A stretch of 64,000 nt of DNA from an uncultured virus (IMG/VR IMGVR_UViG_3300047320_000362). Its lineage: Duplodnaviria > Heunggongvirae > Uroviricota > Caudoviricetes. A program made the translations under genes and the position numbers. Each line of letters begins with the position of its first letter. The first letter of the stretch is position 1. Positions 5,443 to 62,768 of this stretch are shown piece by piece. The stretch is from IMG/VR virus record IMGVR_UViG_3300047320_000362, one strand, 5' to 3'. The notes beneath the pieces were generated by a model, which did no database searches, was not told the origin of the DNA, and was given only the letters and a program-made list of their open reading frames with translations.

Positions 5443-5511
5443 CCCTGTTGACGAATTCCATCTCCTCCCCGCACACTTCCAGACATGAACAGGACTTTTG
5501 GCAGGTGCGGG

Positions 5512-6831
5512 ATGGAATTCTTCAAGAAGCGCTCGAACGAGTTTTTCAGGGGTGTCGGAGCCGAATTCGTCTTCAAGACTTCGGATGGGATATCCCTCGT
5601 GTCGGGCGGTCGAATCCTTAAGTTGAGGGTCGACGGGCCGCTTCCGGGAGCTACCGCGTCGCGACTTGTGCTCGCGGAACCCGACGGCAATGAGCATGTT
5701 ATCTTCGAGGGTGACGCGGTATCCGCCTCGGCGAAGTTCGTGGAGATCGCGAACGAAGCGACATCGAAGCGAACGCCTGTCAGCGTCAGCCGCAAGGGGG
5801 CCTATGCGGTTCTGGCCGCATTTACCGCCGTCTATCTGATCTTCTGCCATCCGATCTCGCAGCCTGCCTCCCAGCTCCCGGCAACGCAGACATCCGCATC
5901 GGATCTTGATGCGCTGCTCAAGTCTATTCCTTCCCTGACGGGCGGCGTCGGCAAGCTGAACGGCCTCAACATCCCGGCGGCTGTGAACTCGGCAGTGCCG
6001 ATCCAGCCCGGCGTGGCGGCGGACTCCGTGTCGCCCGTCCTCGACAAGCCATCCTTCCTGTCGCTTCCCGAGGACGAAGTCTCCGCGGCGAAGGCGGACG
6101 AACAGAAGACGAAGGACGTCGCCGCGGCGATTCCCGCCTACAGCGCCGATCTCTACGACAAGGCCGACCCGAAGGCAGCGCCGACGGCTGACAAGTCCGT
6201 GCCGGAGGCTTCGAAGCCATCGGAGGCTGCCACGACCGCGAAACGGACCGAAGAGGTGTCTGTGGCGCCGACTGATGCGAAGCCGGCCGCCGCCACCGAG
6301 GTTGCAGCGCTTCCGGCAAGCACGCCAGTCAAGGCCGACGAGGCTGTCGCGGGCAAGGATCCGGCAGCGGCAACTCCTGCGGTTTCCCCGGTCGAGAAGT
6401 CCGAGGCGAAGCCGGCGGATGCCAAGCCAGACGCCGATTCCGCTGCAAAGGCGGCAAAGGCCGCGACGAAGGACATGTCGGCGGCGGAGACCGCAGATCT
6501 CCTGAAGCAGATCGAGCAGATGATGCAGATGGATCCGACGGCCATCACGCCGGACATGCTGGCGAAGCTGCCGCATGAGATCGCCCAGACGCTCCGCGAC
6601 ACAGGCGTGATCGGCAACCCCGAGTCCATGCCTGAGAAGGGCAGCGCTCCCTACGCGGCCATCCGCCTTCCTCCCGGCGCCATCGACAAGTTCCGCGGCA
6701 GGGATGGCATCGCGTCCATTCCCGAGAACGACACCTTCGCGGCGCTCGGAAACAAGATCACGCTCCAGCTCCCTGGCGGCGGAGACATCCGCAAGCCCGA
6801 TGATCTCAAGCTTTTCGGCTTCAAGCCGTGA
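5512..6831 (+). CDS. membrane-anchored Ala/Pro/Lys-rich hypothetical protein
   Basis: Single TM (GAYAVLAAFTAVYLIF), low-complexity linker, compact C-terminal domain; start could be 5485. Confidence 0.75.
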   Translation: MEFFKKRSNEFFRGVGAEFVFKTSDGISLVSGGRILKLRVDGPLPGATASRLVLAEPDGNEHVIFEGDAVSASAKFVEIANEATSKRTPVSVSRKGAYAVLAAFTAVYLIFCHPISQPASQLPATQTSASDLDALLKSIPSLTGGVGKLNGLNIPAAVNSAVPIQPGVAADSVSPVLDKPSFLSLPEDEVSAAKADEQKTKDVAAAIPAYSADLYDKADPKAAPTADKSVPEASKPSEAATTAKRTEEVSVAPTDAKPAAATEVAALPASTPVKADEAVAGKDPAAATPAVSPVEKSEAKPADAKPDADSAAKAAKAATKDMSAAETADLLKQIEQMMQMDPTAITPDMLAKLPHEIAQTLRDTGVIGNPESMPEKGSAPYAAIRLPPGAIDKFRGRDGIASIPENDTFAALGNKITLQLPGGGDIRKPDDLKLFGFKP

Positions 6832-30245: not shown

Positions 30246-32252
30246 ATGGCTACTTCGGCTGAAAAAATCGATGCAACCGACACTGCCTCTGGCCCCGACC
30301 GTCCGCTCCTGGACATGACCGACTTTGCGGTCAAGCGCATGATCGCTGCGGCGAAGAAGCGCGGCCACGTCAGCATGGACACGCTCAACACCGTGATCTC
30401 CACCGACGAGATGTCAGCCGAGGCCATCGAAGACATGCTCGCCATGATCTCCGACATGGGCATCAACATCGTGGAGGACGACGAAGCCGACGACTACGAC
30501 GGCGAGGGCGACGGGCACGAGGAGGAAGAGGAGCCGGAGACCCAGATCGCGGTCGCCAGCCCCAAGGCCCTCGCAGCCAGCAAGAAGAAGGAGCCGACCG
30601 ATCGCACCGACGATCCCGTGCGCATGTATCTGCGCGAGATGGGTTCGGTCCAGCTTCTGTCGAGAGAAGGCGAGATCGCCATCGCCAAGCGCATCGAATC
30701 CGGCAAGGAGACGATGATCGCCGGCCTCTGTGAAAGCCCCCTGACATTCCAAGCCATCATCATCTGGCGCGACGAGCTGCTGCAGGGCACGACCCTTCTT
30801 CGTGACATCATCGACCTCGACGCAACCTACTCCGGGCCGGAGGCGAAGGCCGCGCCGGAATTCAAGAGCGCCGAACAGCTCGAACTCGAACGCAAGGCAG
30901 CGGAAGAGAAGGAGCGTGCGCGCAAGGCGCGGCAGGCCGAGGAAGACATCACCAATGTCGGCGGGGAGGCTCCGGTCGTCGAGGAGAGCGAAGACGACGA
31001 CAGCACTCTCTCCATCGTCGCCATGGAGGCGGAACTGCTGCCGCAGGTGACGGTGATCCTGAACGAGATCGCCGATATCTACGCCTCGCTGCGCAACCTG
31101 CAGGGCAAAGCCCATCTCTCCGCGGCCGAGCAGGAGCGTCTTTCCGCCTTCAGGACCGACCTCATCGCCTCCGTGAAGAAGCTGTCGCTTCACCACAAGC
31201 GCGTCGAAAGCCTCCTCGAACAGCTCTTCGCAATCTCGAAGAATCTCCTCGGCAGCGAGGGCCGCCTGCTGCGTCTGGCGGAATCGCACGGCGTTCGCCG
31301 CGACGACTTCCTCGCCCACTACAGCGGCCACGAGCTTGATGCGAACTGGATCGACCAGATCTCCCAGCTCCCGGGCAAATGGAAGGCGTTCGCGGAAAGG
31401 GAGGCCGACACCATCAAGTCGATCCTCGGAGATATCCAGACGCTCGTCGCAGACACTGGTATCACGCCCGGAGAATTCCGGCGCATCGTGGCTCAGGTCC
31501 AGAAGGGCGAGCGCGAGGCGCGCGTCGCCAAGAAGGAGATGGTCGAAGCCAACCTCCGTCTGGTCATCTCGATCGCGAAGAAGTACACGAACCGCGGCCT
31601 GCAGTTCCTTGATCTTATTCAGGAAGGCAACATCGGACTGATGAAGGCGGTCGACAAGTTCGAGTACCGCCGCGGCTACAAGTTCTCGACCTACGCCACA
31701 TGGTGGATCCGGCAGGCGATCACCCGCTCCATCGCCGACCAGGCACGCACGATCCGCATTCCGGTGCACATGATCGAGACCGTGAACAAGATCATCCGGA
31801 CATCGCGCCAGATGCTTCACTCGCTCGGTCGCGAGCCGACCCCCGAGGAGCTGTCGGAGGTGCTCAAGATGCCTCTGGACAAGGTTCAGAAGACGCTGAA
31901 GATCGCAAGGGAGCCGATCTCGCTCGAAACCCCGGTGGGCGACGAGGACGGTGACTCCAGCGTCGGCGACTTCATCGAGGACAAGGGCGCTGTGCTCCCG
32001 ATCGATGCGGCCGTGGCGGCGAACCTGCGCGAGACGACGACAAAGGTTCTGGCCACCCTGACGGCGAGGGAGGAGCGGGTGCTGCGCATGCGCTTCGGCA
32101 TCGGCATGAATACCGACCACACGCTCGAAGAGGTCGGCGTGCAGTTCTCGGTCACGAGGGAGCGCATCCGCCAGATCGAGGCGAAGGCGCTGCGCAAGCT
32201 CAAGCATCCGAGCCGCAGCCGTGCGCTGCGCACCTTCCTCGAAGCATCGTAG
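30246..32252 (+). CDS. rpoD: RNA polymerase primary sigma factor (sigma70), element-borne paralog
   Basis: Region 1.1, [11 protein letters not shown] (1.2), [55 protein letters not shown]. Confidence 0.97.
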
Positions 32253-32389: not shown

Positions 32390-32803
32390 ATGAGTACGGT
32401 GGAACCAAATCTTGGCATCTATGAGAATGAAGGCGTGGCTCTGGCGGAGCTTGTACGTCGGCTTGTGGACGGCCTGAATCCGCAACAGGTTTTCCTATTC
32501 GGTAGCCGAGCGCGCAGGGATCATCGTCCTGATAGCGATTTTGATTTCTTAGTAGTCACCAATGTTGAAGATGGTGAGAATGGGCGGGACTGGGGTTGGG
32601 TTCGCAAGCCGCTCAGAGGGAGTGGCGTTGGCTGCGATGTCGTTCCTGTTCGTATTGATGATTTCGAAGCCGAACTTCACAGTGGTATCAGCATGATCCC
32701 TTCGATCATGCATGAAGCTGTGAAGGTATATGATGTCAAAGAAGGTTTCCGGATACCTGGTCTTGGCCGATCGGGAACTAGCGGCAGCAAGATGTTTGCA
32801 TGA
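32390..32803 (+). CDS. minimal nucleotidyltransferase (MNT) antitoxin
   Basis: LFGSRAR...DSDFDFLVV. Confidence 0.88.
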   Translation: MSTVEPNLGIYENEGVALAELVRRLVDGLNPQQVFLFGSRARRDHRPDSDFDFLVVTNVEDGENGRDWGWVRKPLRGSGVGCDVVPVRIDDFEAELHSGISMIPSIMHEAVKVYDVKEGFRIPGLGRSGTSGSKMFA

Positions 32804-33140
32804 GAATGAATTCAAAGGGCAGGCGATGTATTTCATCGCGCAAGCTGCGGAGAAAGCAGCGAGGGCTATCATCGAGGCATCTGGCCTCTACGCTGGCACC
32901 ACCCATAGTTTTGATCAGCTAGGTTCGAAACTGAACGTAGATCATCCTTACAGAGAACGAATTCTTGATTTCGATGAAGCTCTTTCAGGTGCTTCAACTA
33001 GATATCGTTACCCTACCGAAAGTGGCCAAGTTAGAGAGCCGACCTACTCCAATGTCGAAAAATATCTGGGTGATGTAGCGGAATTTATTGAAGAAGCTCG
33101 CCGCTTTATCGTCTCCACGCATTTCAATTTCCGCAGATGA
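32730..33140 (+). CDS. HEPN-domain protein (MNT-HEPN toxin)
   Basis: A..EL.AA, QAAEKA.RA, TH...L, TRYRYP; overlaps MNT. Confidence 0.85.
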   Translation: MMSKKVSGYLVLADRELAAARCLHENEFKGQAMYFIAQAAEKAARAIIEASGLYAGTTHSFDQLGSKLNVDHPYRERILDFDEALSGASTRYRYPTESGQVREPTYSNVEKYLGDVAEFIEEARRFIVSTHFNFRR

Positions 33141-49953: not shown

Positions 49954-50045
49954 GCAATTCCACGGACGGTTCGAGCTGGGCCACGGCGAAGTCATTCAAC
50001 TGGGCGGCCTCAGATAACTGTTAGCCGACCTATCCGTGAGACGAC

Positions 50046-50077
50046 AACACCCGGCTCGAAGGCCGGGTGTTTCATTT
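50046..50077 (+). terminator. intrinsic terminator
   Basis: AACACCCGGC-TCGAAG-GCCGGGTGTT-TCATTT. Confidence 0.7.
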
Positions 50078-50220
50078 CTGCGGCAGCTTTCGAAATCTCA
50101 TGGGACTTCTTTTAGAAGGACTCCAAAACCTGCCATCGTGTCAACATTCTTTCCATGAAGGATTGAATCTTCCATGGCGAGTGATATACCGAGGACACGA
50201 ATAGAAAAGGAGTCCCTGCA

Positions 50221-51234
50221 ATGGGCATCAAGGCCACTCTCATCCCCGGCGACGGCATCGGCCCCGAAATCGTAACCGCAACCCTCCACGTCCTGGATGC
50301 CATGGGTAATCCGTTCGACTTCGATGTGAAGCACGCCGGAGAGCTCACCTACAAGACCGAAGGCTTCGCATTCCCCGAAGCCACGAAGGACAGCATCCGC
50401 GAGCGCGGCCTCGCGCTGAAGGGGCCTCTCGGAACACCTTCCGGCGGCGGCTACCGCTCGGCGACCGTGCAGATGCGCGAGGAGTTCCAGCTCTTCGCAA
50501 ACGTCCGCCCGTCCCAGTCCTTCGTTCCCGGCGACAGGTTCCACAAGGACGTCGACCTCGTGCTTGTGCGCGAGAACCTGCAGGGCCTCTACGCCTCGGC
50601 CGAGGGCTACATCCCGATCGGCGACGATCCGCACGGCGTGGCCTTCGCGACGGCCTACAACACCAAGGAGGAGATGCTCCGGATCCTGCGCTACGGCTTC
50701 GACCTCGCTCACAAGCGCGACGGCAAGCGCAAGGTCACCGTCGTGCACAAGTCGAACATCCTCAAGAAGCTGAGCGGCATCCTCGTCGAGGCCTCGAACG
50801 AGATCCGCGGCGAGTACGCGGACCTGACCGTGGAGCACGAGATCGCCGACGCATTCGGCGCGAACCTCGTCGTCAAGCCGCAGTACTACGACGTGATCGT
50901 CACCACGAACCTCTTCGGCGACCTGTTCTCCGATATCTCGGCGGTTCTGGTCGGACGTCTTGGCACCGCTGCGGGAGCGAACTACGGCAAGGACGCGGCC
51001 ATCTTCGAAGCCGTCCATGGCACGGCCGAGGACATCGCAGGGAAGGGGATCGCGAACCCAACTTCTCTCCTGCTTTCCACGGTCATGATGCTCAATCACG
51101 CAGGAATCCCCGACGAGGCCGTTCGCCTCGAGAAGGCGGTCAAGGACACGATTCGCGCAGGCGAGATGACGGGCGACATCGGCGGATCGCTCGACACCAA
51201 GGGCTTCGTGAAAGCGGTGATCGGACGTCTGTGA
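50221..51234 (+). CDS. isocitrate/isopropylmalate dehydrogenase family, NAD-IDH-like
   Basis: IPGDGIGPEI, ALKGP, ANVRP, RENLQGLY, VHKSNILK, NLFGD..SD, FEAVHGTA.DIAGKGIANP. Confidence 0.92.
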   Translation: MGIKATLIPGDGIGPEIVTATLHVLDAMGNPFDFDVKHAGELTYKTEGFAFPEATKDSIRERGLALKGPLGTPSGGGYRSATVQMREEFQLFANVRPSQSFVPGDRFHKDVDLVLVRENLQGLYASAEGYIPIGDDPHGVAFATAYNTKEEMLRILRYGFDLAHKRDGKRKVTVVHKSNILKKLSGILVEASNEIRGEYADLTVEHEIADAFGANLVVKPQYYDVIVTTNLFGDLFSDISAVLVGRLGTAAGANYGKDAAIFEAVHGTAEDIAGKGIANPTSLLLSTVMMLNHAGIPDEAVRLEKAVKDTIRAGEMTGDIGGSLDTKGFVKAVIGRL

Positions 51235-51581
51235 TGCAGCATCTTCTCACGAAAGTCATGGCTTGCGGCGTTCTTGCCGCAATCCTTCTCTCCGCCCAGC
51301 CGGCCGCCGCGGTCAGCTACTCCGACATCATGATCCTGAAAAACGAAAACCAGCGCCTCCAGAGCAAGATCGAGCGGCTGCGTGACGAGGTCAACGGCCT
51401 GAAGCGGCGCGCCATGCGCCTGACATCGGAGTGCGACGGGCAGAAATGCGTCCTCAAGGAAGCCGTGACGTATGACAGCTACGGGGAATGCAGGGAGTCT
51501 ATCGTCCCCGAGAAGGTGGCGCTCTCAATCTGCATGCCGATGGGCGGAGAAACGTCCGGCGGCGTTCCAAGTTCGCCGTAA
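51231..51581 (+). CDS. secreted coiled-coil / Cys-containing protein
   Basis: Signal peptide; GTGA overlap with the dehydrogenase gene. Confidence 0.6.
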   Translation: MMQHLLTKVMACGVLAAILLSAQPAAAVSYSDIMILKNENQRLQSKIERLRDEVNGLKRRAMRLTSECDGQKCVLKEAVTYDSYGECRESIVPEKVALSICMPMGGETSGGVPSSP

Positions 51582-51598
51582 AAGGAAAGGAACTTTCA

Positions 51599-51787
51599 GT
51601 GAGCGAGAATAGCACATTCGGAAGCCTGACCGAGACCATGGATCGCCGGAACAAGGTGCACCTGCGCATCATCAAGGCGCTGGAGCGCTGGCCCCGCGAC
51701 CAGGCGATGTCCTGCATCATGATGTGGATGAGCATCGACGAGCTGGAAGAGGCGGCGAAGACGATCTGCAAGGATCTCGATGACTGA
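51599..51787 (+). CDS. small hypothetical protein
   Basis: AAGGA SD, GTG start. Confidence 0.5.
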   Translation: MSENSTFGSLTETMDRRNKVHLRIIKALERWPRDQAMSCIMMWMSIDELEEAAKTICKDLDD

Positions 51788-51803
51788 ACGGTGTTTTCGG
51801 AAC

Positions 51804-51855
51804 GCCATGCCTTACGGTGTGATCATCGCAAGCGCATCGCACCGTAAGGCATGGC
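51804..51855. repeat. 20-bp near-perfect inverted repeat
   Basis: GCCATGCCTTACGGTGTGAT / ATCGCACCGTAAGGCATGGC (19/20), 12-nt loop. Confidence 0.8.
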
Positions 51856-51954
51856 CCGTCCGACGCGGCAGGCTTCCTGGTGTCTGGTTAACCACTGCAC
51901 GCATCTTTAAGGATTCGTGCTTGATTATTCTTCTCGGCGGCGCATAGTGCCGTC

Positions 51955-52131
51955 TCAAAGGGTGCCTTCCGCATCCTCCCTCGTCTCGGCGATCGGGTTA
52001 AGCCTCCTCCTAGGCCGGAAATTCCAAGTGATGAAAGCATTCCGCTCGTCGTGGCGCTGCGGATACATTTGGCCGAAGAGGCTGCAAATCATAGGGAACG
52101 TCCACGAGCGTTCTCGAGCCCAGGAGGCACT
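51955..52131 (+). ncRNA. candidate structured leader RNA with kissing loops
   Basis: Nested helices 51962-70/52123-30, 52001-06/52078-83, 52013-19/52068-74, 52041-45/52059-63, 52094-100/52109-15; loop-loop TCGTGG/CCACGA. Confidence 0.55.
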
Positions 52132-54054
52132 ATGAAGTACGCTCTCGCCAACGACGCACGCGCCCGTTCCGTCGCCAAGGATCTCGCACGCCTCGCCAAG
52201 GAATACAGCCTGAAGCTCCCGCTAACGTCCGCCCAAAATGTCACCGCGCGCCTCTTCGGCTATTCCGGCTGGCAGGTTCTTCTTGCAAACGTGGGACAGG
52301 GACGCGGCCCCGAGGATCATGAGCTTTCCAAGGAATCGGCCACGGAACGCCGGGCCGACCAGATCGAGACTCTCGTCAACGCAGGCTTCGGGACTGAAGC
52401 CGGCGCGGTTCTCGACGCCCTGCGTCCCACCGGCCGCGAGCAGGCCTCAATGGAAGCAAATCCGCGTATCTGGCCCGTGCAGATCGGCGTGAACCACCAC
52501 CCGAACCGTATGCGTGTCGCGCTAGACGAGCTTGACGGCACCTACATAATGCATGGGAAATTTGACGCTCTTCCGGAGTACATGAGCGAATGGGAATCGA
52601 AACGCTTCGTGCATCCACTCGACCGTGAGTCCAATTCCGCCCATGCCATCAATAGCCTTCTCATGACGTTCGAGATCTTCCGTGAGGAGGCTGGCCATGT
52701 CGTTGATGTCTCTGCGATCGTCAGCGACAAACCCGATACGAGCGTGCTCGATGAAAAATGGAGTGCCTTGCCCGACGATCTCGCCGATCTGGGGCGGTAC
52801 TACTTCCACTTCGGCAACCATCGGTTCCCGTCTCCATTCAAGGACATCGGCATCGATGGATGCTACGTTTCGGCTCTCGATGAGGTGCTTGACGAAAACG
52901 GCATTCCTGGAGGGTTCAGCTTCACTTTCACGACCAGCCCTGAGATCGCACCTGGCTTCGATGACGTTCTGTTCGACAACGAGCCCGAACTCGACTTGCG
53001 ATCAGTGCTCCGAGTTGTGGAGATCATCTGCTCCGACATGGATGGAGAGCATGTCGGAAGCGCAATCAACGCCGCGAACGAGTCCGAGCATTCGGACGAG
53101 TACGTCGATGCCTGGAGGCCGTATCTGGAAAGGCCTCTCTGCGCGGCGTGGACGGCATTGAAGGCTTACCGCGCACGCCAGAGCCCGATCTACGACGCAC
53201 TCGACGCCGACAGCTTCAAGGAGGATTTCTCGAGGCTCGAACGCGCGACGACGGATCAGGCTGTCGTAGACCGTATGCGGCAGATTGCCGAGAACAGTGG
53301 GATGGACCAGGATTTCCCGGTCCGCTTTATGGGCAAGACCCCGCCATCGGCGGACATCTATCTCGAGGAGATGGCCGCAAGCCCATTCCCGGTCGCTGGA
53401 TCCGGCCCTGAGCGCTATGACATGAATCATGTCCTGTCCAAGCTCGCCGACGCGCTGCAGATGGAGCGGATCTGGAGCCTGTACGAGTGCGCCAAGGAAG
53501 CACTCAGGATGTGCGGCGACCTCGATGCATCCGACCCGACAACGGAGCACGTCACCGTCAAGGCCCGCGCGATGGTCATGAATGGGGCGCACATGGTCGG
53601 GGATGGAAAGCGGGCGCTCGAAGCTGCGAGCGCCGTCCTTCGCTCGCAGCTTCCTAAAGTCGTGGACTATCTTCCCGGCGCGGTCATCGTCTTGGCGGCG
53701 GCCGGACTTGAGGAGGATGCGCGGAACACATCAGCTCGGCTGTCGGAAGCTGCTCCCGGGACGGCCATGGCGGCGCTCTCGGAGCTTCTGGTCGCCGCCA
53801 TCTTTTCGGAGAGGCATGTCCGCGACACGCTGCTGAGGAAGTTCGTCGACCACCATGAAGACGCAGCCAAGTGCATTCTGCGTCTCAAGGTGGAGCCGTG
53901 GAACTGGTTCAGCCGTGACGGCAGTTACGGAGACGATGAGATCGATTACGCGGCCTGCATGTTCAACGAACCTCTGAGACGGGCCGGGGTCAGGGAGATC
54001 CTGCAGGCCCTTATTGATGCTCAGACCCCCTCCGGGTCGGCTACTCTTCACTAA
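52132..54054 (+). CDS. 640-aa protein with N-terminal Glyoxalase_8-like helical domain
   Basis: ARSVAKDLARL...LPLTSAQNVTARLFGYSGWQVL N-terminal pattern; helical C-terminus; GGAGG SD. Confidence 0.7.
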   Translation: MKYALANDARARSVAKDLARLAKEYSLKLPLTSAQNVTARLFGYSGWQVLLANVGQGRGPEDHELSKESATERRADQIETLVNAGFGTEAGAVLDALRPTGREQASMEANPRIWPVQIGVNHHPNRMRVALDELDGTYIMHGKFDALPEYMSEWESKRFVHPLDRESNSAHAINSLLMTFEIFREEAGHVVDVSAIVSDKPDTSVLDEKWSALPDDLADLGRYYFHFGNHRFPSPFKDIGIDGCYVSALDEVLDENGIPGGFSFTFTTSPEIAPGFDDVLFDNEPELDLRSVLRVVEIICSDMDGEHVGSAINAANESEHSDEYVDAWRPYLERPLCAAWTALKAYRARQSPIYDALDADSFKEDFSRLERATTDQAVVDRMRQIAENSGMDQDFPVRFMGKTPPSADIYLEEMAASPFPVAGSGPERYDMNHVLSKLADALQMERIWSLYECAKEALRMCGDLDASDPTTEHVTVKARAMVMNGAHMVGDGKRALEAASAVLRSQLPKVVDYLPGAVIVLAAAGLEEDARNTSARLSEAAPGTAMAALSELLVAAIFSERHVRDTLLRKFVDHHEDAAKCILRLKVEPWNWFSRDGSYGDDEIDYAACMFNEPLRRAGVREILQALIDAQTPSGSATLH

Positions 54055-55109
54055 ACGGTCGAGATGCCAACCCACCCCGGCAGGGCGCTGTTCTGCCGGG
54101 CATGCGCGTGAAAGAGGAACTCCCACGCCGATCTCAGCGCGTAGGATGTGTGGCCGGACTGCTCCGCAAGCCATCGGCCCACTCCATCCAGTCCAAGAGC
54201 GGCCGCATCGAGCACAACATGACCCTCCGTGAACGGCCGCTCGGCATCATCAATGCTGTTTCCTACGTCGGCCCAGCGCCCGCGAATCCTCGACACCCCA
54301 ATGAATTCCGGCTTGCCGCCGCGCTCCATATGACGGACGAAGGCGATGATGCGGGTCTCCACGGCAACGGTCTCGTCCAGGCCGGTCTCTTCAACGAGTT
54401 CGCGGGTGATCGCGTCGGCGACCGCCTGCGTCAGCGACGATGCGCCTGCGATGTCCGCCATGTCTATCGACCCCGCCGCGCTCGACGTGATCTTCCCTGC
54501 AGCGACCGCGGCGGCTGATCCGGTGACACAAAGGCGCAGCCGGCCGTCATCGTCGAATGCGAGAGACGTGGCTCCGATGTGGTTCGACATGCGACTACGG
54601 GAGAGCTTCGGAACCATCGATAGCGGGAAGGCGCGCGACGTTCCGTCGACAGAAAGGCCGTCGCATGCCTGATATTCCCGGAGACAGAACTCGTTGGTGA
54701 CAAGCCCCTTGAAGTAGCTCGTCGGCTCCAGCGCGACCGCTTGCCCGGCTGCGGGATCCGAGGCCATGCGGATCTTCATGGAATCGAAGATGTTCCGGCC
54801 CTCCGCCCGCATCTGGCTGATCCGCCTGTCCAGCATCCATGGGTCATCAGGCTCAAACGGGCGCACCGACATCACGAACGGCAGGGGAACGCCGTCGGAG
54901 AGGGAGGCATTCAGTCCTTCGTGGTAGATGGTGTCGGGCTCATCGATTTCCTCGCTGAGGAAAGCCATTTTCCAGCCCGCGGCGGCGAGCCTCGGTTCAA
55001 GTGTGAGACTCGACAGACGGGATCTGTCCGCTCCTGAAAGACTGCCGCCCATGCCCAGCTCCTCCGGTGTTGCTCCAAAAAGGCTGGCGGGAGCGGAGGC
55101 AAGTGACAA
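54051..55109 (-). CDS. NUDIX-fold hydrolase-like protein (start uncertain)
   Basis: NHIGATSL..DDDG, GSID, RELVEETGL, GGKPEF. Confidence 0.7.
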   Translation of the reverse strand: MSLASAPASLFGATPEELGMGGSLSGADRSRLSSLTLEPRLAAAGWKMAFLSEEIDEPDTIYHEGLNASLSDGVPLPFVMSVRPFEPDDPWMLDRRISQMRAEGRNIFDSMKIRMASDPAAGQAVALEPTSYFKGLVTNEFCLREYQACDGLSVDGTSRAFPLSMVPKLSRSRMSNHIGATSLAFDDDGRLRLCVTGSAAAVAAGKITSSAAGSIDMADIAGASSLTQAVADAITRELVEETGLDETVAVETRIIAFVRHMERGGKPEFIGVSRIRGRWADVGNSIDDAERPFTEGHVVLDAAALGLDGVGRWLAEQSGHTSYALRSAWEFLFHAHARQNSALPGWVGISTV

Positions 55110-55145
55110 ACAGCGTCCGGACGGAGAGCAGGGGGTGCGAGGCGG

Positions 55146-55355
55146 TTACTTGCGCCGCGCGAGCCGTCGGCCGTCGATGAAGTCGATGAGTGAAATCAAG
55201 ATCGAGCCTACTATCACGAAAAGTAGCGGAGACAGAACCAGTATCCCAATAACGGCTATGAACGGATGGGCTGAAGCGAACCCGGTGAAGTAGGCCGTCA
55301 GGGCCAGAACGACGGCGGCGATCACCGTGCCGATGGCGGGTTCTATTAGCGTCAT
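55146..55355 (-). CDS. small membrane protein
   Basis: Two TM helices; GGAGG SD. Confidence 0.6.
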   Translation of the reverse strand: MTLIEPAIGTVIAAVVLALTAYFTGFASAHPFIAVIGILVLSPLLFVIVGSILISLIDFIDGRRLARRK

Positions 55356-55496
55356 GAAGATCCTCCAGATTGGGATTCAATCATCCCGCCTGATCCCGAT
55401 CGGCGCAAGGACTCATGTCAGTGCGGGCCGTCGGGGTCTTTGTCTCATGCCTGTCCGGTATCTAGGATCCATGCAGATCGATGAAAGGTAACGCAC

Positions 55497-56192
55497 ATGG
55501 AACTGCAGAAGCCGACGGACAGGATCGTCAAGGCAACGCTCGTCTCGCTCGTCAGGAAGGTCGCCTGGGGGCCGAGCCGCGACATGCTCTTGAAGGAATC
55601 GGCGCGCTTCCGTGCGGCGGCGGGCGAAGCCACGCAGCAGGTGAATGGCATCGTGCTGAACGAACTCTTCACGCACAACGCCCGCGGAGGGGTCGAGGAC
55701 GACGCGCTCCGCGATGCACGGAAACGCGAAGGCATCCTGCGCACGCAATCCGATGAACTTCACTGGAAGTCGGAACTCTACGCCCTGGCGGCAGCCGCAC
55801 GCTTCCCACGCGACGATGATCGGACGCTGAAGAACTTCGTCGTGAACATCATTGAGGACATCCGCCAGTTCCAGGATAAGGGCTATATCACCGCAGGACG
55901 CGCGATGCAGGACATTGCCGGAGCCGTTACCAGCGCTCTTGAAGCGGAAGGTCTCGAACTCAAGGATCTACCGCTTCCTCCAAGCATCGAAGAGATGATC
56001 GACAGGGGAATGCCACGTCCGGACTACATCTCGGAAAAGCACTGGAAGGCTGCGGAGGAAGCCTACTTCCACCAGATGACGCTGGACAACACGCCTTCCG
56101 ACTTCATCAACGGCGGCGATGACTACGACGACTATTCCGGTGACGATGGTTTTGCCGAGAGCCCTGAAGAAGAAATGGCACTGGCGCGCTGA
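55497..56192 (+). CDS. hypothetical protein with acidic tail
   Basis: AAGG SD; 231 aa. Confidence 0.7.
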   Translation: MELQKPTDRIVKATLVSLVRKVAWGPSRDMLLKESARFRAAAGEATQQVNGIVLNELFTHNARGGVEDDALRDARKREGILRTQSDELHWKSELYALAAAARFPRDDDRTLKNFVVNIIEDIRQFQDKGYITAGRAMQDIAGAVTSALEAEGLELKDLPLPPSIEEMIDRGMPRPDYISEKHWKAAEEAYFHQMTLDNTPSDFINGGDDYDDYSGDDGFAESPEEEMALAR

Positions 56193-61247: not shown

Positions 61248-62768
61248 ATGCGCTTTTCCAATGCCTTCCTTGACGAGCTGCGTGAACGCGTTCCGATTTC
61301 GGACGTGATCGGCCGCCGCATGGTCTGGGACGAGCGCCAGACAAACGTCGCGCGCGGCGAATACTGGGGCTGCTGCCCGTTCCATCGCGAGAGGTCTCCA
61401 AGCTTCCACTGCTATATCCGCAAGGGGCGCTATCACTGCTTCGGCTGCGGGCAGAGTGGCGACCACTTCAAGTTCCTGATCGAGCTGGAGGGCCTGAGCT
61501 TTCCTGAGGCCGTGCAGCAGATCGCTGACATGGGCGGTGTCACGCTGCCTGCAGCGGATCCGGTCTCGGAAGAGCGCGAGAAGGAGCGCAAATCGCTTCT
61601 CGATGTCATGGAGCTTGCGACCCGGTTCTTCGAGGAGCGGCTGCTGTCGGTGGATGGTGCCAAGGCGAGGGCCTATCTGCAAGGGCGAGGACTGACAGAG
61701 GATACGATCGAGACGTTCCGGCTGGGCTTCGCTCCGGACAGCCGCAATGCCTTGAAGGAGTTCCTGGCAGGAAAGGGCGTCTCCAGGCAGCAAATCGAAG
61801 CCTGCGGACTTGTCGTGCACGGCCCAGACATTCAGGTTTCCTACGACCGCTTCCGCGACCGGATCATGTTTCCGATCCTGTCGCCACTCGAGAAGGTCAT
61901 CGCATTCGGCGGGAGGGCCATGTCACCCGGCGCATCCCCAAAGTATCTCACCGCCAGCGACACCGAGCTCTTCCGCAAGGGCGACATCCTCTACAACCTC
62001 GCGCGGGCGCGCCGGGCCTCCAATAGCGGGAGGGGGAATGGGGGTGTCGTGGCCGTCGAAGGCTACATGGATGTGATCGCGCTGCATCAGGCGGGCGTCG
62101 AGAATGCCGTGGCACCCCTCGGCACCGCGCTGACCCGCAACCAGCTAAAGCTACTCTGGAGGATTGCTCGGGAGCCGATCCTCTGCTTCGATGGCGACAG
62201 CGCTGGCACCCGGGCCGCGAACCGGGCCGCCGATCTGGCGCTTCCAAGCATCAGGCCGGGCCGCAGCCTTCGCTTCGCCCTTCTTCCCGACGGCAAGGAT
62301 CCTGACGATCTGGTGCGCGAGGAGGGCAGGAGTGCGTTTGACAGCGCGAGGCAGCAGGCCACGGCGCTGTCGGAACTGATCTGGATCCGCGAGATCGGCG
62401 ACGCGCGGTTCGACACGCCAGAGGCCAGAGCCGAACTTGAGGTGCGCCTCAGAGACATCGGGAACGCTATCGCCGATGAAGGCGCGCGCCACCAGTACCA
62501 GCAGGAAATGCGCGACCGCATGAACAGCTTCTTTTCAAGCGCCGATCGATACACCGGTCTTCTTGGCGACGGCCTGGACATAACCGGAAGACAGATCGAG
62601 TACTGGGGAGACATCTGGACGGTCACGGGCAAGAACTACCTCGGTGACTGGGATGTCGAGCGCTTCGAGACGAGGCCCGACGGCAGGTTCAGGATCACGT
62701 CGTCCATCTGCCCGAAAATTCTCCCCGAGACGCACGGGCACTTCGCGCGTCTTGTCAGCCATTCCTGA
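61248..62768 (+). CDS. dnaG: DNA primase DnaG (CHC2 Zn finger + TOPRIM), C-terminus replaced
   Basis: CCPFH..SPSF..HCFGC, YDRFRDRIMFPI, FGGR, VEGYMDV, FDGD.AG, KDPDD. Confidence 0.93.
   Translation: MRFSNAFLDELRERVPISDVIGRRMVWDERQTNVARGEYWGCCPFHRERSPSFHCYIRKGRYHCFGCGQSGDHFKFLIELEGLSFPEAVQQIADMGGVTLPAADPVSEEREKERKSLLDVMELATRFFEERLLSVDGAKARAYLQGRGLTEDTIETFRLGFAPDSRNALKEFLAGKGVSRQQIEACGLVVHGPDIQVSYDRFRDRIMFPILSPLEKVIAFGGRAMSPGASPKYLTASDTELFRKGDILYNLARARRASNSGRGNGGVVAVEGYMDVIALHQAGVENAVAPLGTALTRNQLKLLWRIAREPILCFDGDSAGTRAANRAADLALPSIRPGRSLRFALLPDGKDPDDLVREEGRSAFDSARQQATALSELIWIREIGDARFDTPEARAELEVRLRDIGNAIADEGARHQYQQEMRDRMNSFFSSADRYTGLLGDGLDITGRQIEYWGDIWTVTGKNYLGDWDVERFETRPDGRFRITSSICPKILPETHGHFARLVSHS

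Follow-up and report, generated by a model that had tools for sequence, protein, structure and literature searches.

A rare, conserved and probably structured 5' leader with complementary hairpin loops upstream of a gene of an uncharacterised family

The leader and its layout

The DNA analyzed here, hereafter called the window, is a stretch of 64,000 nucleotides (nt) from an uncultured virus (IMG/VR record IMGVR_UViG_3300047320_000362). At 52132..54054 on the plus strand, it carries a gene for a protein of 640 amino acids (aa), which comprises an N-terminal helical domain of ~105 residues (hereafter the N-domain), a central alpha/beta domain and a C-terminal repeat that resembles tetratricopeptide repeats (TPR) at residues ~430-630. 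This gene is preceded by a leader or 5' untranslated region (5' UTR) of ~177 nt (51955..52131, plus strand), delimited by conservation with a related locus and by a consensus fold, which would run from the transcription start site (TSS) to the start codon. The leader is strongly conserved in related loci, contains two hairpins with complementary six-base loops, and probably represents a novel, though rare, translational RNA switch. Four leaders of the window type were compared (n = 4): those of the window, of L001, a metagenome locus encoding an ortholog (protein 76% identical to the window protein), and of L003 and L004, two paralog loci on the Rhizobium leguminosarum replicon pRlX5 (NZ_CP140867.1, 1.32 Mb). 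They represent about three independent lineages, window and L001 being close to one another.

When the sequence was read directly, the elements that the initial annotation had listed (a promoter-like TTGATT-N16-CATAGT, helices, hairpins and two loop hexamers) were all found in place. The promoter-like site (CTTGAT/TTGATT-N16/17-CATAGT; 51920..51948, plus strand), which is based on sequence reading and the alignment with L001, consists of a -35-like TTGATT (51921-51926), a 16-nt spacer and a -10-like CATAGT (51943-51948). It scores 8/12, which is below the threshold of the promoter scanner and hence went unreported. At the same position L001 has TTGACT-16-GATATT with a scanner score of 9/12, and the hexamers of both loci coincide in position and spacing (CTTGAT...CATAGT in the window versus CTTGAC...GATATT in L001). 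Strong conservation with L001 starts at AAAGGGTGC, a few bases 3' of the -10 hexamer, and the high conservation from there on fits a TSS near 51955. Approximately 27 nt 5' of the -35 hexamer (by alignment) lies TGGTTAACCA, a perfect 10-bp palindrome without strand (51885..51894; read from the sequence and the L001 alignment), within a block (51877-51897) that is kept in L001. It is a possible regulator-binding site for the leader promoter.

The first element of the leader itself is the segment AGGGUGC-CUUCC-GCAUCCU (51959..51977; this and all following leader elements are on the plus strand), delimited by fold predictions and by a motif match in L001 and L003. It can fold into a local hairpin around CUUCC or, alternatively, contribute its GUGCCUUCC (51962-70) to a helix with the Shine-Dalgarno (SD) region, called P1. 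The segment overlaps the conserved UUCCGCAYCCUCCC (51967-80), which is exactly present in both L001 and L003. A second 5' hairpin, CCC-UCG-UCUCGG-CGA-UC-GGG with UCUCGG as the loop, followed by GUUAAG (51978..51997), was taken from the pair table and has a counterpart in L003. According to the fold predictions, a long stem (52001..52083) is then built from AGCCUC/GAGGCU (AGCCTC 52001-06, GAGGCT 52078-83) and GGCCGGA/UUUGGCC (GGCCGGA 52013-19, TTTGGCC 52068-74). It encloses hairpin A (52042..52062; region TCCGC 52041-45, GCGGA 52059-63), which folds in four leaders and exposes the 6-nt loop UCGUGG (52049-54). Further downstream, motif comparison identified UCAUAGGG (52089..52096) as invariant in four out of four leaders, and its GGG opens hairpin B, GGGAACG-UCCACGAG-CGUUCUC (52094..52115; strands GGGAACG 52094-100 and CGTTCTC 52109-115), of which the loop CCACGA (52102-07) is complementary to loop A. 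Finally, the region 52122..52134 comprises the SD sequence AGGAGG, GGCAC (the 3' strand of P1) and the start ATG at 52132, as judged from the sequence and the starts of the homologs, all of which begin with MKY or MQY at this ATG. In P1, GTGCCTTCC (51962-51970) lies opposite GGAGGCAC (52123-52130); the latter partly coincides with the SD AGGAGG (52122-27) seven bases 5' of the ATG.

Conservation and base pairing among related leaders

Between window and L001, 154 of the 182 aligned leader columns are identical (85%). The corresponding values are 59% (152/257) for four-fold degenerate sites, 54/82 for the promoter region and 85-88% for codon positions 1-2. Judged by this comparison, the leader is under strong purifying selection and constrained like protein-coding sequence. 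As a blastn query, it also matches the upstream region of the paralog L003 (E 5e-4). Overall, the proteins of L003 and L004 share ~27% identity with the window protein, and the identity of the N-domains is 40-44%. In the L003 leader, UUCCGCACCCUCCC (UUCCGCAYCCUCCC), CGUCGUGGCG, UCAUAGGG, a hairpin and an SD follow each other in the same order as in the window, and in L004 this applies to CGUGGCG, UCAUAGGG, a hairpin and an SD. The conservation upstream of homologs on which the initial annotation had made its proposal depend is thus present, with the leader kept in L001 and L003 and partial motifs in L004.

Hairpin A has a six-base YCGUGG loop in four out of four leaders on top of stems that differ (window: CCGC-U-CG/CG-CU-GCGG; L001: CGCACG/CGU-C-GCG; L003: CCGCG/CGCGG; L004: CCACG/CGUGG). 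Hairpin B begins in the GGG of UCAUAGGG and likewise has different stems (GGGAACG/CGUUCUC, GGGUUCG/CGCGCCC and GGGCGGCA/UGCAGCCU). Both hairpins fold on their own in each of the four leaders, at -6 to -9 kcal/mol. Moreover, all six bases of loop A pair with loop B in all four, so that the complementarity of the hairpin loops noticed in the window is a shared property. The pairs are UCGUGG:CCACGA in window and L001, UCGUGG:CCGCGA in L003 (one U-A becomes U.G) and GCGUGG:CUACGC in L004, where a U-A is replaced by G-C through changes on both sides and one G.U is added. The chance that a random loop of the same length and composition pairs with all of loop A is P ~0.027. L004 is the only truly independent test of the loop pairing, L003 being partly independent; hairpin B of L004 is unrelated in sequence, yet its stem and the pairing with loop A are kept.

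Read from the alignment, every change between window and L001 in GGCCGGA/UUUGGCC keeps the pairing. In alignment A8, comprising three sequences, 94.7% of the cells pair, compared to 31-49% when the partners are slid, and two pairs change on both sides. The RNAalifold consensus of the full leader (window, L001 and L003) reaches -41.9 kcal/mol with a z-score of -3.04, a value that none of 300 column shuffles reach. The minimum free energy (MFE) fold of the 180-nt window leader includes the long stem and the final hairpin as well as the helix between the 5' end and the SD. By arithmetic, two to three six-base complementary pairs are expected by chance in a sequence of 150 nt. It is only because of the comparison with relatives that the structure of the leader exceeds chance. 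A cmscan of positions 50000-56000 against Rfam 15 at E ≤ 10 gave seven weak matches, all far below the gathering score and none inside 51955-52131; the closest are microRNA models on a palindrome at 51796-51863. The leader thus matches no riboswitch model of Rfam 15, in line with the initial annotation, which had not recognised it as a known riboswitch.

The second contact concerns the ribosome-binding site (RBS). In the window MFE, the SD and the start are paired with the 5' end through GGUGCCUUC/GGAGGCACU (P1), and this helix is preserved in L001: one C has become U, giving a G.U, and an additional C has been inserted opposite an extra G, with which it pairs. Analogous 5'-end/start-region helices occur in L004 (AUGUG/CACAU) and in L006 (GGUGAUCCCC/GGGGAUCACC). 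Compared to shuffles of the 5' strand, the P1 duplex has p-values of 0.06 in the window, 0.03 in L001 and 0.002 in L006. Other CU-rich strands are able to cover the SD as well, specifically CAUCCUCCC and GCCUCCU (52002-08), and RNAalifold pairs the latter with the SD as AGGAGGC. As the leader also contains GAAGAGGCU, a strand that resembles an SD, the sequence would allow a three-strand switch at the ribosome site.

A second subtype of leaders is found on minus strands of pRlX5 loci (L005, 1807-1918; L006, 1816-1944; L150, 1816-1982). All three start with the same (A/G)GGUG. In a reading by eye, the loop of their first hairpin is complementary to a segment ~30 nt 5' of the start codon, with matched changes between the three (GCCCAC:GUGGGC, GUCCAC:GUGGAC and CCCACC:GGUGGG). 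The L006 leader folds far better than its shuffles (z -4.7). This by-eye reading is a sign that long-range loop pairing could be a family trait of these leaders.

The downstream protein, its family and its genomic context

No Pfam family matches the entire window protein at E ≤ 0.1, and its parts (first 73 and first 223 residues) match none at E ≤ 10. Similarly, NCBIfam and PADLOC contain no match for the gene or its six neighbours apart from weak ones of a single neighbour, a 116-aa protein with three coiled-coil-type NCBIfam matches far below the cutoff. In an Atlas search with the protein, all matches stayed below 0.9. Seven proteins were retrieved from 5.8 billion by a word-indexed search, and HMMER, run in full over 1.84 billion representatives, yielded 89 clusters at E ≤ 1e-3. 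In around 35 of these, both the N-terminal and the central domain are shared; the others have the first ~105 residues in common only and carry different C-terminal parts. The gene family is rare. On pRlX5, 11 open reading frames (ORFs) contain the full N-domain, with C-terminal parts lacking a Pfam domain. These ORFs (L141-L151; 148-624 aa) have the ~105-aa N-domain in common and differ in their C-terminal parts; in L148 and L149, the N-domain is internal and located behind Sel1/TPR-like repeats. As read from their sequences, the N-domain ORFs of pRlX5 are a diversifying family.

The gene had been labelled Glyoxalase_8-like in the initial annotation. At E ≤ 1e-5, an N-domain profile (A4) finds matching ORFs in 115 of 400 Rhizobiaceae genomes, most of them over residues ~5-57 only, and all five tested proteins among these matches carry PF20066 (Glyoxalase_8). 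In two of the five, only the first ~58 positions of PF20066 are present, fused to Glyoxalase_7. The pRlX5 paralogs score 16-23 bits against positions ~5-59 of the PF20066 profile, below its cut-off of 23.7 bits. The label thus holds as a remote homology of the N-terminal part, whereas the window protein itself has no PF20066 match at E ≤ 10. A search of the literature found nothing in print on Glyoxalase_8 or PF20066.

The full-length protein was modelled with a predicted local distance difference test (pLDDT) score of 90.6 and a predicted template modelling (pTM) score of 0.89. For the C-terminal part (residues ~430-630), VIA gives Z 10-12 to TPR chains, Foldseek E 0.04-0.2, and a profile comparison E 2.5e-5 to a designed pentatricopeptide repeat. 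In the model, the C-terminal third is a TPR-like helical repeat, with scores that are typical of helical repeats and uninformative on function. An invariant motif around YYFHFGNHRFPSPF...GCYV lies in the central alpha/beta domain. The sole structural neighbour of this domain (residues ~117-403, window 52480-53340) outside the TPR matches is the anti-CRISPR protein AcrVA2 (7ci1_A; VIA Z 8.6, root mean square deviation 5.4, 207 residues aligned, model residues 117-403); since this score is borderline and sequence support is lacking, the resemblance to AcrVA2 is a lead only. The N-domain is predicted to be a small helical bundle (110 aa, pLDDT 85), for which structure comparison gave no informative neighbour (Foldseek best E 0.78, VIA best Z 5.7) and sequence comparison no match in the PDB.

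Searches for further leaders had a low yield. Neither megablast nor blastn, with the region as query, detected any in plasmids, and tblastn of the protein against plasmids retrieved one record only, pRlX5. Protein and pattern searches of viral contigs and a protein-pattern search of species-representative genome contigs found no copies, and metagenome contigs contained one locus, L001. The pattern CGTGGCG..TCATAGGG..GGAG has seven matches in 401 Hyphomicrobiales genomes versus four for the reversed control, and none is leader-like. A covariance model (R1) run against 16 sources and the whole of pRlX5 recovered its three training sequences and two weak matches (E 0.04 and 0.06). The latter were rejected as leaders, as they lack UCAUAGGG and were read as coding sequence by eye. 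The N-domain profile hits a single genome at E ≤ 1e-10 among the 401 Hyphomicrobiales genomes and provides three near-full-length domain matches among the 400 Rhizobiaceae genomes; in 30 loci fetched with this profile, blastn detected no leader. UUCCGCAYCCUCCC was also considered as a repeated element and rejected, the window having three matches at ≤ 2 mismatches versus 1.8 expected; on pRlX5 it has 43 matches versus 19 in the control, only one of which is exact.

The surroundings of the gene are syntenic with L001. The upstream 99-aa ORF (window 51488-51787) and the downstream opposite-strand 352-aa ORF (54051-55109) have counterparts at ~5500-5700 and 7926-8975 in L001, respectively, and none of the three syntenic genes belongs to a known family. 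Just 3' of the stop of the 99-aa ORF lies a long near-perfect palindrome, CATGCCTTACGGTG...CACCGTAAGGCATG (51808-51851), which has no U tail, is absent from L001 and differs at its edge in one strain variant. An inserted repeat is one possibility, an unusual terminator another. Across the window, 66 long ORFs were scanned, nine of which have a Pfam family at E ≤ 1e-5; many of these ORFs are possibly spurious. Genes for an RpoD-like sigma-70 factor (668 aa; 30246-32252) and a DnaG primase (61248-62768) stand amid mostly family-less ORFs, and an adjacent nucleotidyltransferase (PF01909) and HEPN (PF05168) pair at 32390-33140 has the usual layout of a toxin-antitoxin system. The sigma factor shares 75% identity with that of pRlX5 (565321-567288), whereas the best match among 80 genomic RpoD loci reaches 70% at most. 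Because it is closer to the pRlX5 one, the window probably belongs to a giant replicon of the pRlX5 type, which suggests a shared class of giant replicons with a housekeeping-type sigma factor.

Interpretation and comparison with known systems

The reading that we place first, and which we consider about evenly poised between right and wrong, is that the leader is a cis-acting RNA element that would set the translation of the 640-aa gene by hiding its ribosome site. The leader would be transcribed from the promoter at 51920-51948, and the SD/start region (52122-52134) would be held by CU-rich strands, either GUGCCUUCC or alternatively GCCUCCU (52002-08). The tip of the long stem, i.e., the hairpin A loop UCGUGG, would dock by a six-base kiss on the CCACGA loop of hairpin B, 15 nt before the SD, and this contact may lock a compact fold that is inaccessible to the ribosome. 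Alternatively, the loop-loop contact may be activating, as in the pseudoknots of IncI and IncB plasmids. In either case, a trans factor (a protein, a small RNA, a ligand or temperature) could shift the balance. That RNA rather than a DNA operator is the constrained object is inferred because the stems covary on unrelated sequences; the TSS, the direction of the regulation and its trigger are inferred as well. Of the cis-regulatory noncoding RNA proposed in the initial annotation, the constrained, probably structured 5' leader stands, based on conservation and a small covariation, while the protein-bound part is unsupported.

Several observations weigh against this reading. On its own, the window leader folds no better than shuffled sequences (z = -0.34 for dinucleotide and -1.03 for mononucleotide shuffles), and the consensus fold of the 3' module alone has a z-score of -1.46, with 22 of 300 shuffles as good. 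With about three independent lineages, too few for a statistic of the R-scape type, the covariation is suggestive; the shuffle control for changes on both sides is weak (56/500 shuffles are as high), five of the six kissing pairs are invariant among window, L001 and L003, and in the L003 leader loop A could find partners in other 6-mers as well. L001 has a weakened AGCCUC/GAGGCU helix. A covariance model of window, L001 and L003 misses L004 as a whole and recovers only its hairpin A (6.8 bits, E 2.2), so that the membership of L004 rests on two short motifs and their position. Strain variants in contigs of four runs amount to 10 substitutions and two indels in 1001 nt, none of which falls within the leader, where only approximately two would be expected. 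Regarding the RBS, the SD could pair with several different anti-SD strands, and the P1 duplex fails to reach significance in L003, L004, L005, L007, L009 and L150. The sequestration proposed earlier is supported insofar as a 5'-end/SD helix recurs in several paralog leaders. Finally, 24 sequencing runs (rhizosphere metagenomes) contain window DNA and none of them is an RNA run.

Four other explanations, and a broader variant of the first reading, have to be weighed. Autogenous operators in leaders are of a well-known kind, in which a protein controls its own mRNA. Applied here, the ~105-aa N-domain would bind the leader and repress or activate its own translation, which would make leader and N-domain a single inherited RNA-protein module; autogenous operators in leaders are also the subject of PMC4137082. 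Leader-like 5' regions do accompany pRlX5 N-domain genes with differing C-terminal parts, so the duplicated unit seems to be promoter, leader and N-domain together. Yet duplication alone explains this co-inheritance, and glyoxalase-superfamily proteins with PF20066 or PF19581 also have the first ~57 domain residues, yet in the 30 loci of this sort that were fetched blastn detects no leader (0/30). The N-domain itself offers neither an informative fold match (best Z 5.7) nor a PDB sequence match. The proposal that the N-domain binds the leader, already made in the initial annotation, thus finds no support in these data, and we consider autogenous control unlikely.

Similarly improbable in our estimation is the more far-reaching version of the cis-acting switch, in which the paralogs on giant rhizobial replicons would each have a variant of a single ancestral leader with a private loop-loop code (e.g., UCGUGG:CCACGA, GCGUGG:CUACGC, GCCCAC:GUGGGC and GUCCAC:GUGGAC) that, in combination with the 5'-end/SD helix, would constitute a sensor of a new riboswitch-like or protein-responsive class and switch the whole diversified family on together. 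The reader of such a code could possibly be the family's own N-domain.

A somewhat fainter prospect is that the leader has no specific RNA function, being an inherited or gene-converted flank of a recently expanded family with chance helices in a GC-rich, CU/GA-rich sequence. The unremarkable single-sequence fold, the six-base complementarities expected by chance, the few sequences and the mostly invariant kissing pairs would all agree with this. Neutral drift is nonetheless hard to reconcile with a leader whose identity is 85%, compared to 59% at neutral sites, and with motifs that persist between paralogs whose N-domains are 40-44% and whose whole proteins are ~27% identical. It also leaves aside that hairpin B of L004 is unrelated and still pairs with loop A (P ~0.027), and that the consensus fold has a z-score of -3.0.

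Doubtful, too, is a role at the DNA level or in antisense, in which CCCTATGA, i.e., UCAUAGGG on the other strand, would be the -10 element of an antisense transcript covering hairpin A, or in which the conserved motifs would be operators. A minus-strand promoter-like TCGAGA-18-TATGAT (52117-52088) was reported in the window, CTATGA is kept in four out of four leaders, and the element is plasmid-like; repZ of IncI1 and IncB provides a precedent for antisense RNAs in competition with a pseudoknot (PMC8053102). However, the same scanner reports no minus-strand promoter at this place in L001, L003 and L004, the would-be -35 lies within hairpin B where the sequence is unconserved, and hairpin B is the only terminator-like site on the minus strand in the window. 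Protein operators, in turn, are not expected to have stems that change and remain complementary. A translated upstream ORF (from 51917 or 51962 to 52135, its TGA overlapping the start codon as ATGA) that couples or attenuates translation is hardly credible, as this 72-aa frame is broken by L001 indels of -1, +3 and +1 that lead it into a stop or the main frame, its first 22 codons differ between window and L001 by four amino-acid changes and one synonymous change (five differences), and no start codon with an SD is conserved.

If the fold of the cis-acting leader is real, it would be an uncatalogued cis-regulatory RNA that is tied to an uncharacterised, diversifying family with 11 copies on a 1.3-Mb Rhizobium replicon. 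It would then offer a means of finding out when the orphan genes are expressed and add a further bacterial intramolecular kissing loop beside an RBS. The rarity of the leader and the missing trigger restrict its immediate reach.

Among known systems, ROSE RNA thermometers are multi-hairpin 5' UTRs of Rhizobiales with a paired SD, located before small heat-shock (HSP20) genes. The leader shares with them the Rhizobiales-type replicon, the multi-hairpin 5' UTR and the paired SD. In contrast to ROSE, it has no Rfam match at E ≤ 10 and shows no U(U/C)GCU anti-SD hairpin with a bulged G, and the downstream gene, without a Pfam match, is not a small heat-shock gene. A second parallel is found in riboswitches: in the cobalamin riboswitch, a kiss between L5 and L13 occludes the RBS, and purine and lysine riboswitches have loop-loop contacts as well. 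PMC11260477 mentions a kissing loop of B12 switches. The leader resembles such kissing platforms in the predicted loop-loop contact between an upstream structured domain and an SD-adjacent hairpin, and in a fold that would be closed by a 5'/3' helix. Unlike riboswitches, it has no Rfam riboswitch match, no recognisable conserved core resembling a ligand pocket, a downstream gene without any metabolite hint and a tiny distribution.

The third parallel concerns the repZ and repA genes of IncI1, IncB and IncL/M plasmids, the translation of which depends on a pseudoknot (Asano & Mizobuchi 1998; Praszkier & Pittard; both covered in PMC8053102 and cited in PMC10724649). Like these plasmids, the window has a long mRNA leader on a plasmid-type replicon, in which the loop of an upstream hairpin is complementary to a stretch near the RBS (6 bp in four out of four leaders, 15 nt before the SD). 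In these plasmids the long-range contact decides translation, and we propose that the window leader may be alike in this respect. The gene controlled in these plasmids is a replication initiator, the structure is opened by a translated leader peptide, and an antisense RNA competes for the loop. The window gene, on the other hand, is not a Rep gene, its upstream ORF is unconserved and no conserved antisense promoter was found in the four leaders; furthermore, the pairing partner sits in a second hairpin loop and there is no sequence relation. The IncI1/IncB rep pseudoknots and the cobalamin-type kissing platforms are thus the closest working analogues. The leader belongs to neither and is a rare, uncatalogued regulator of a known type.

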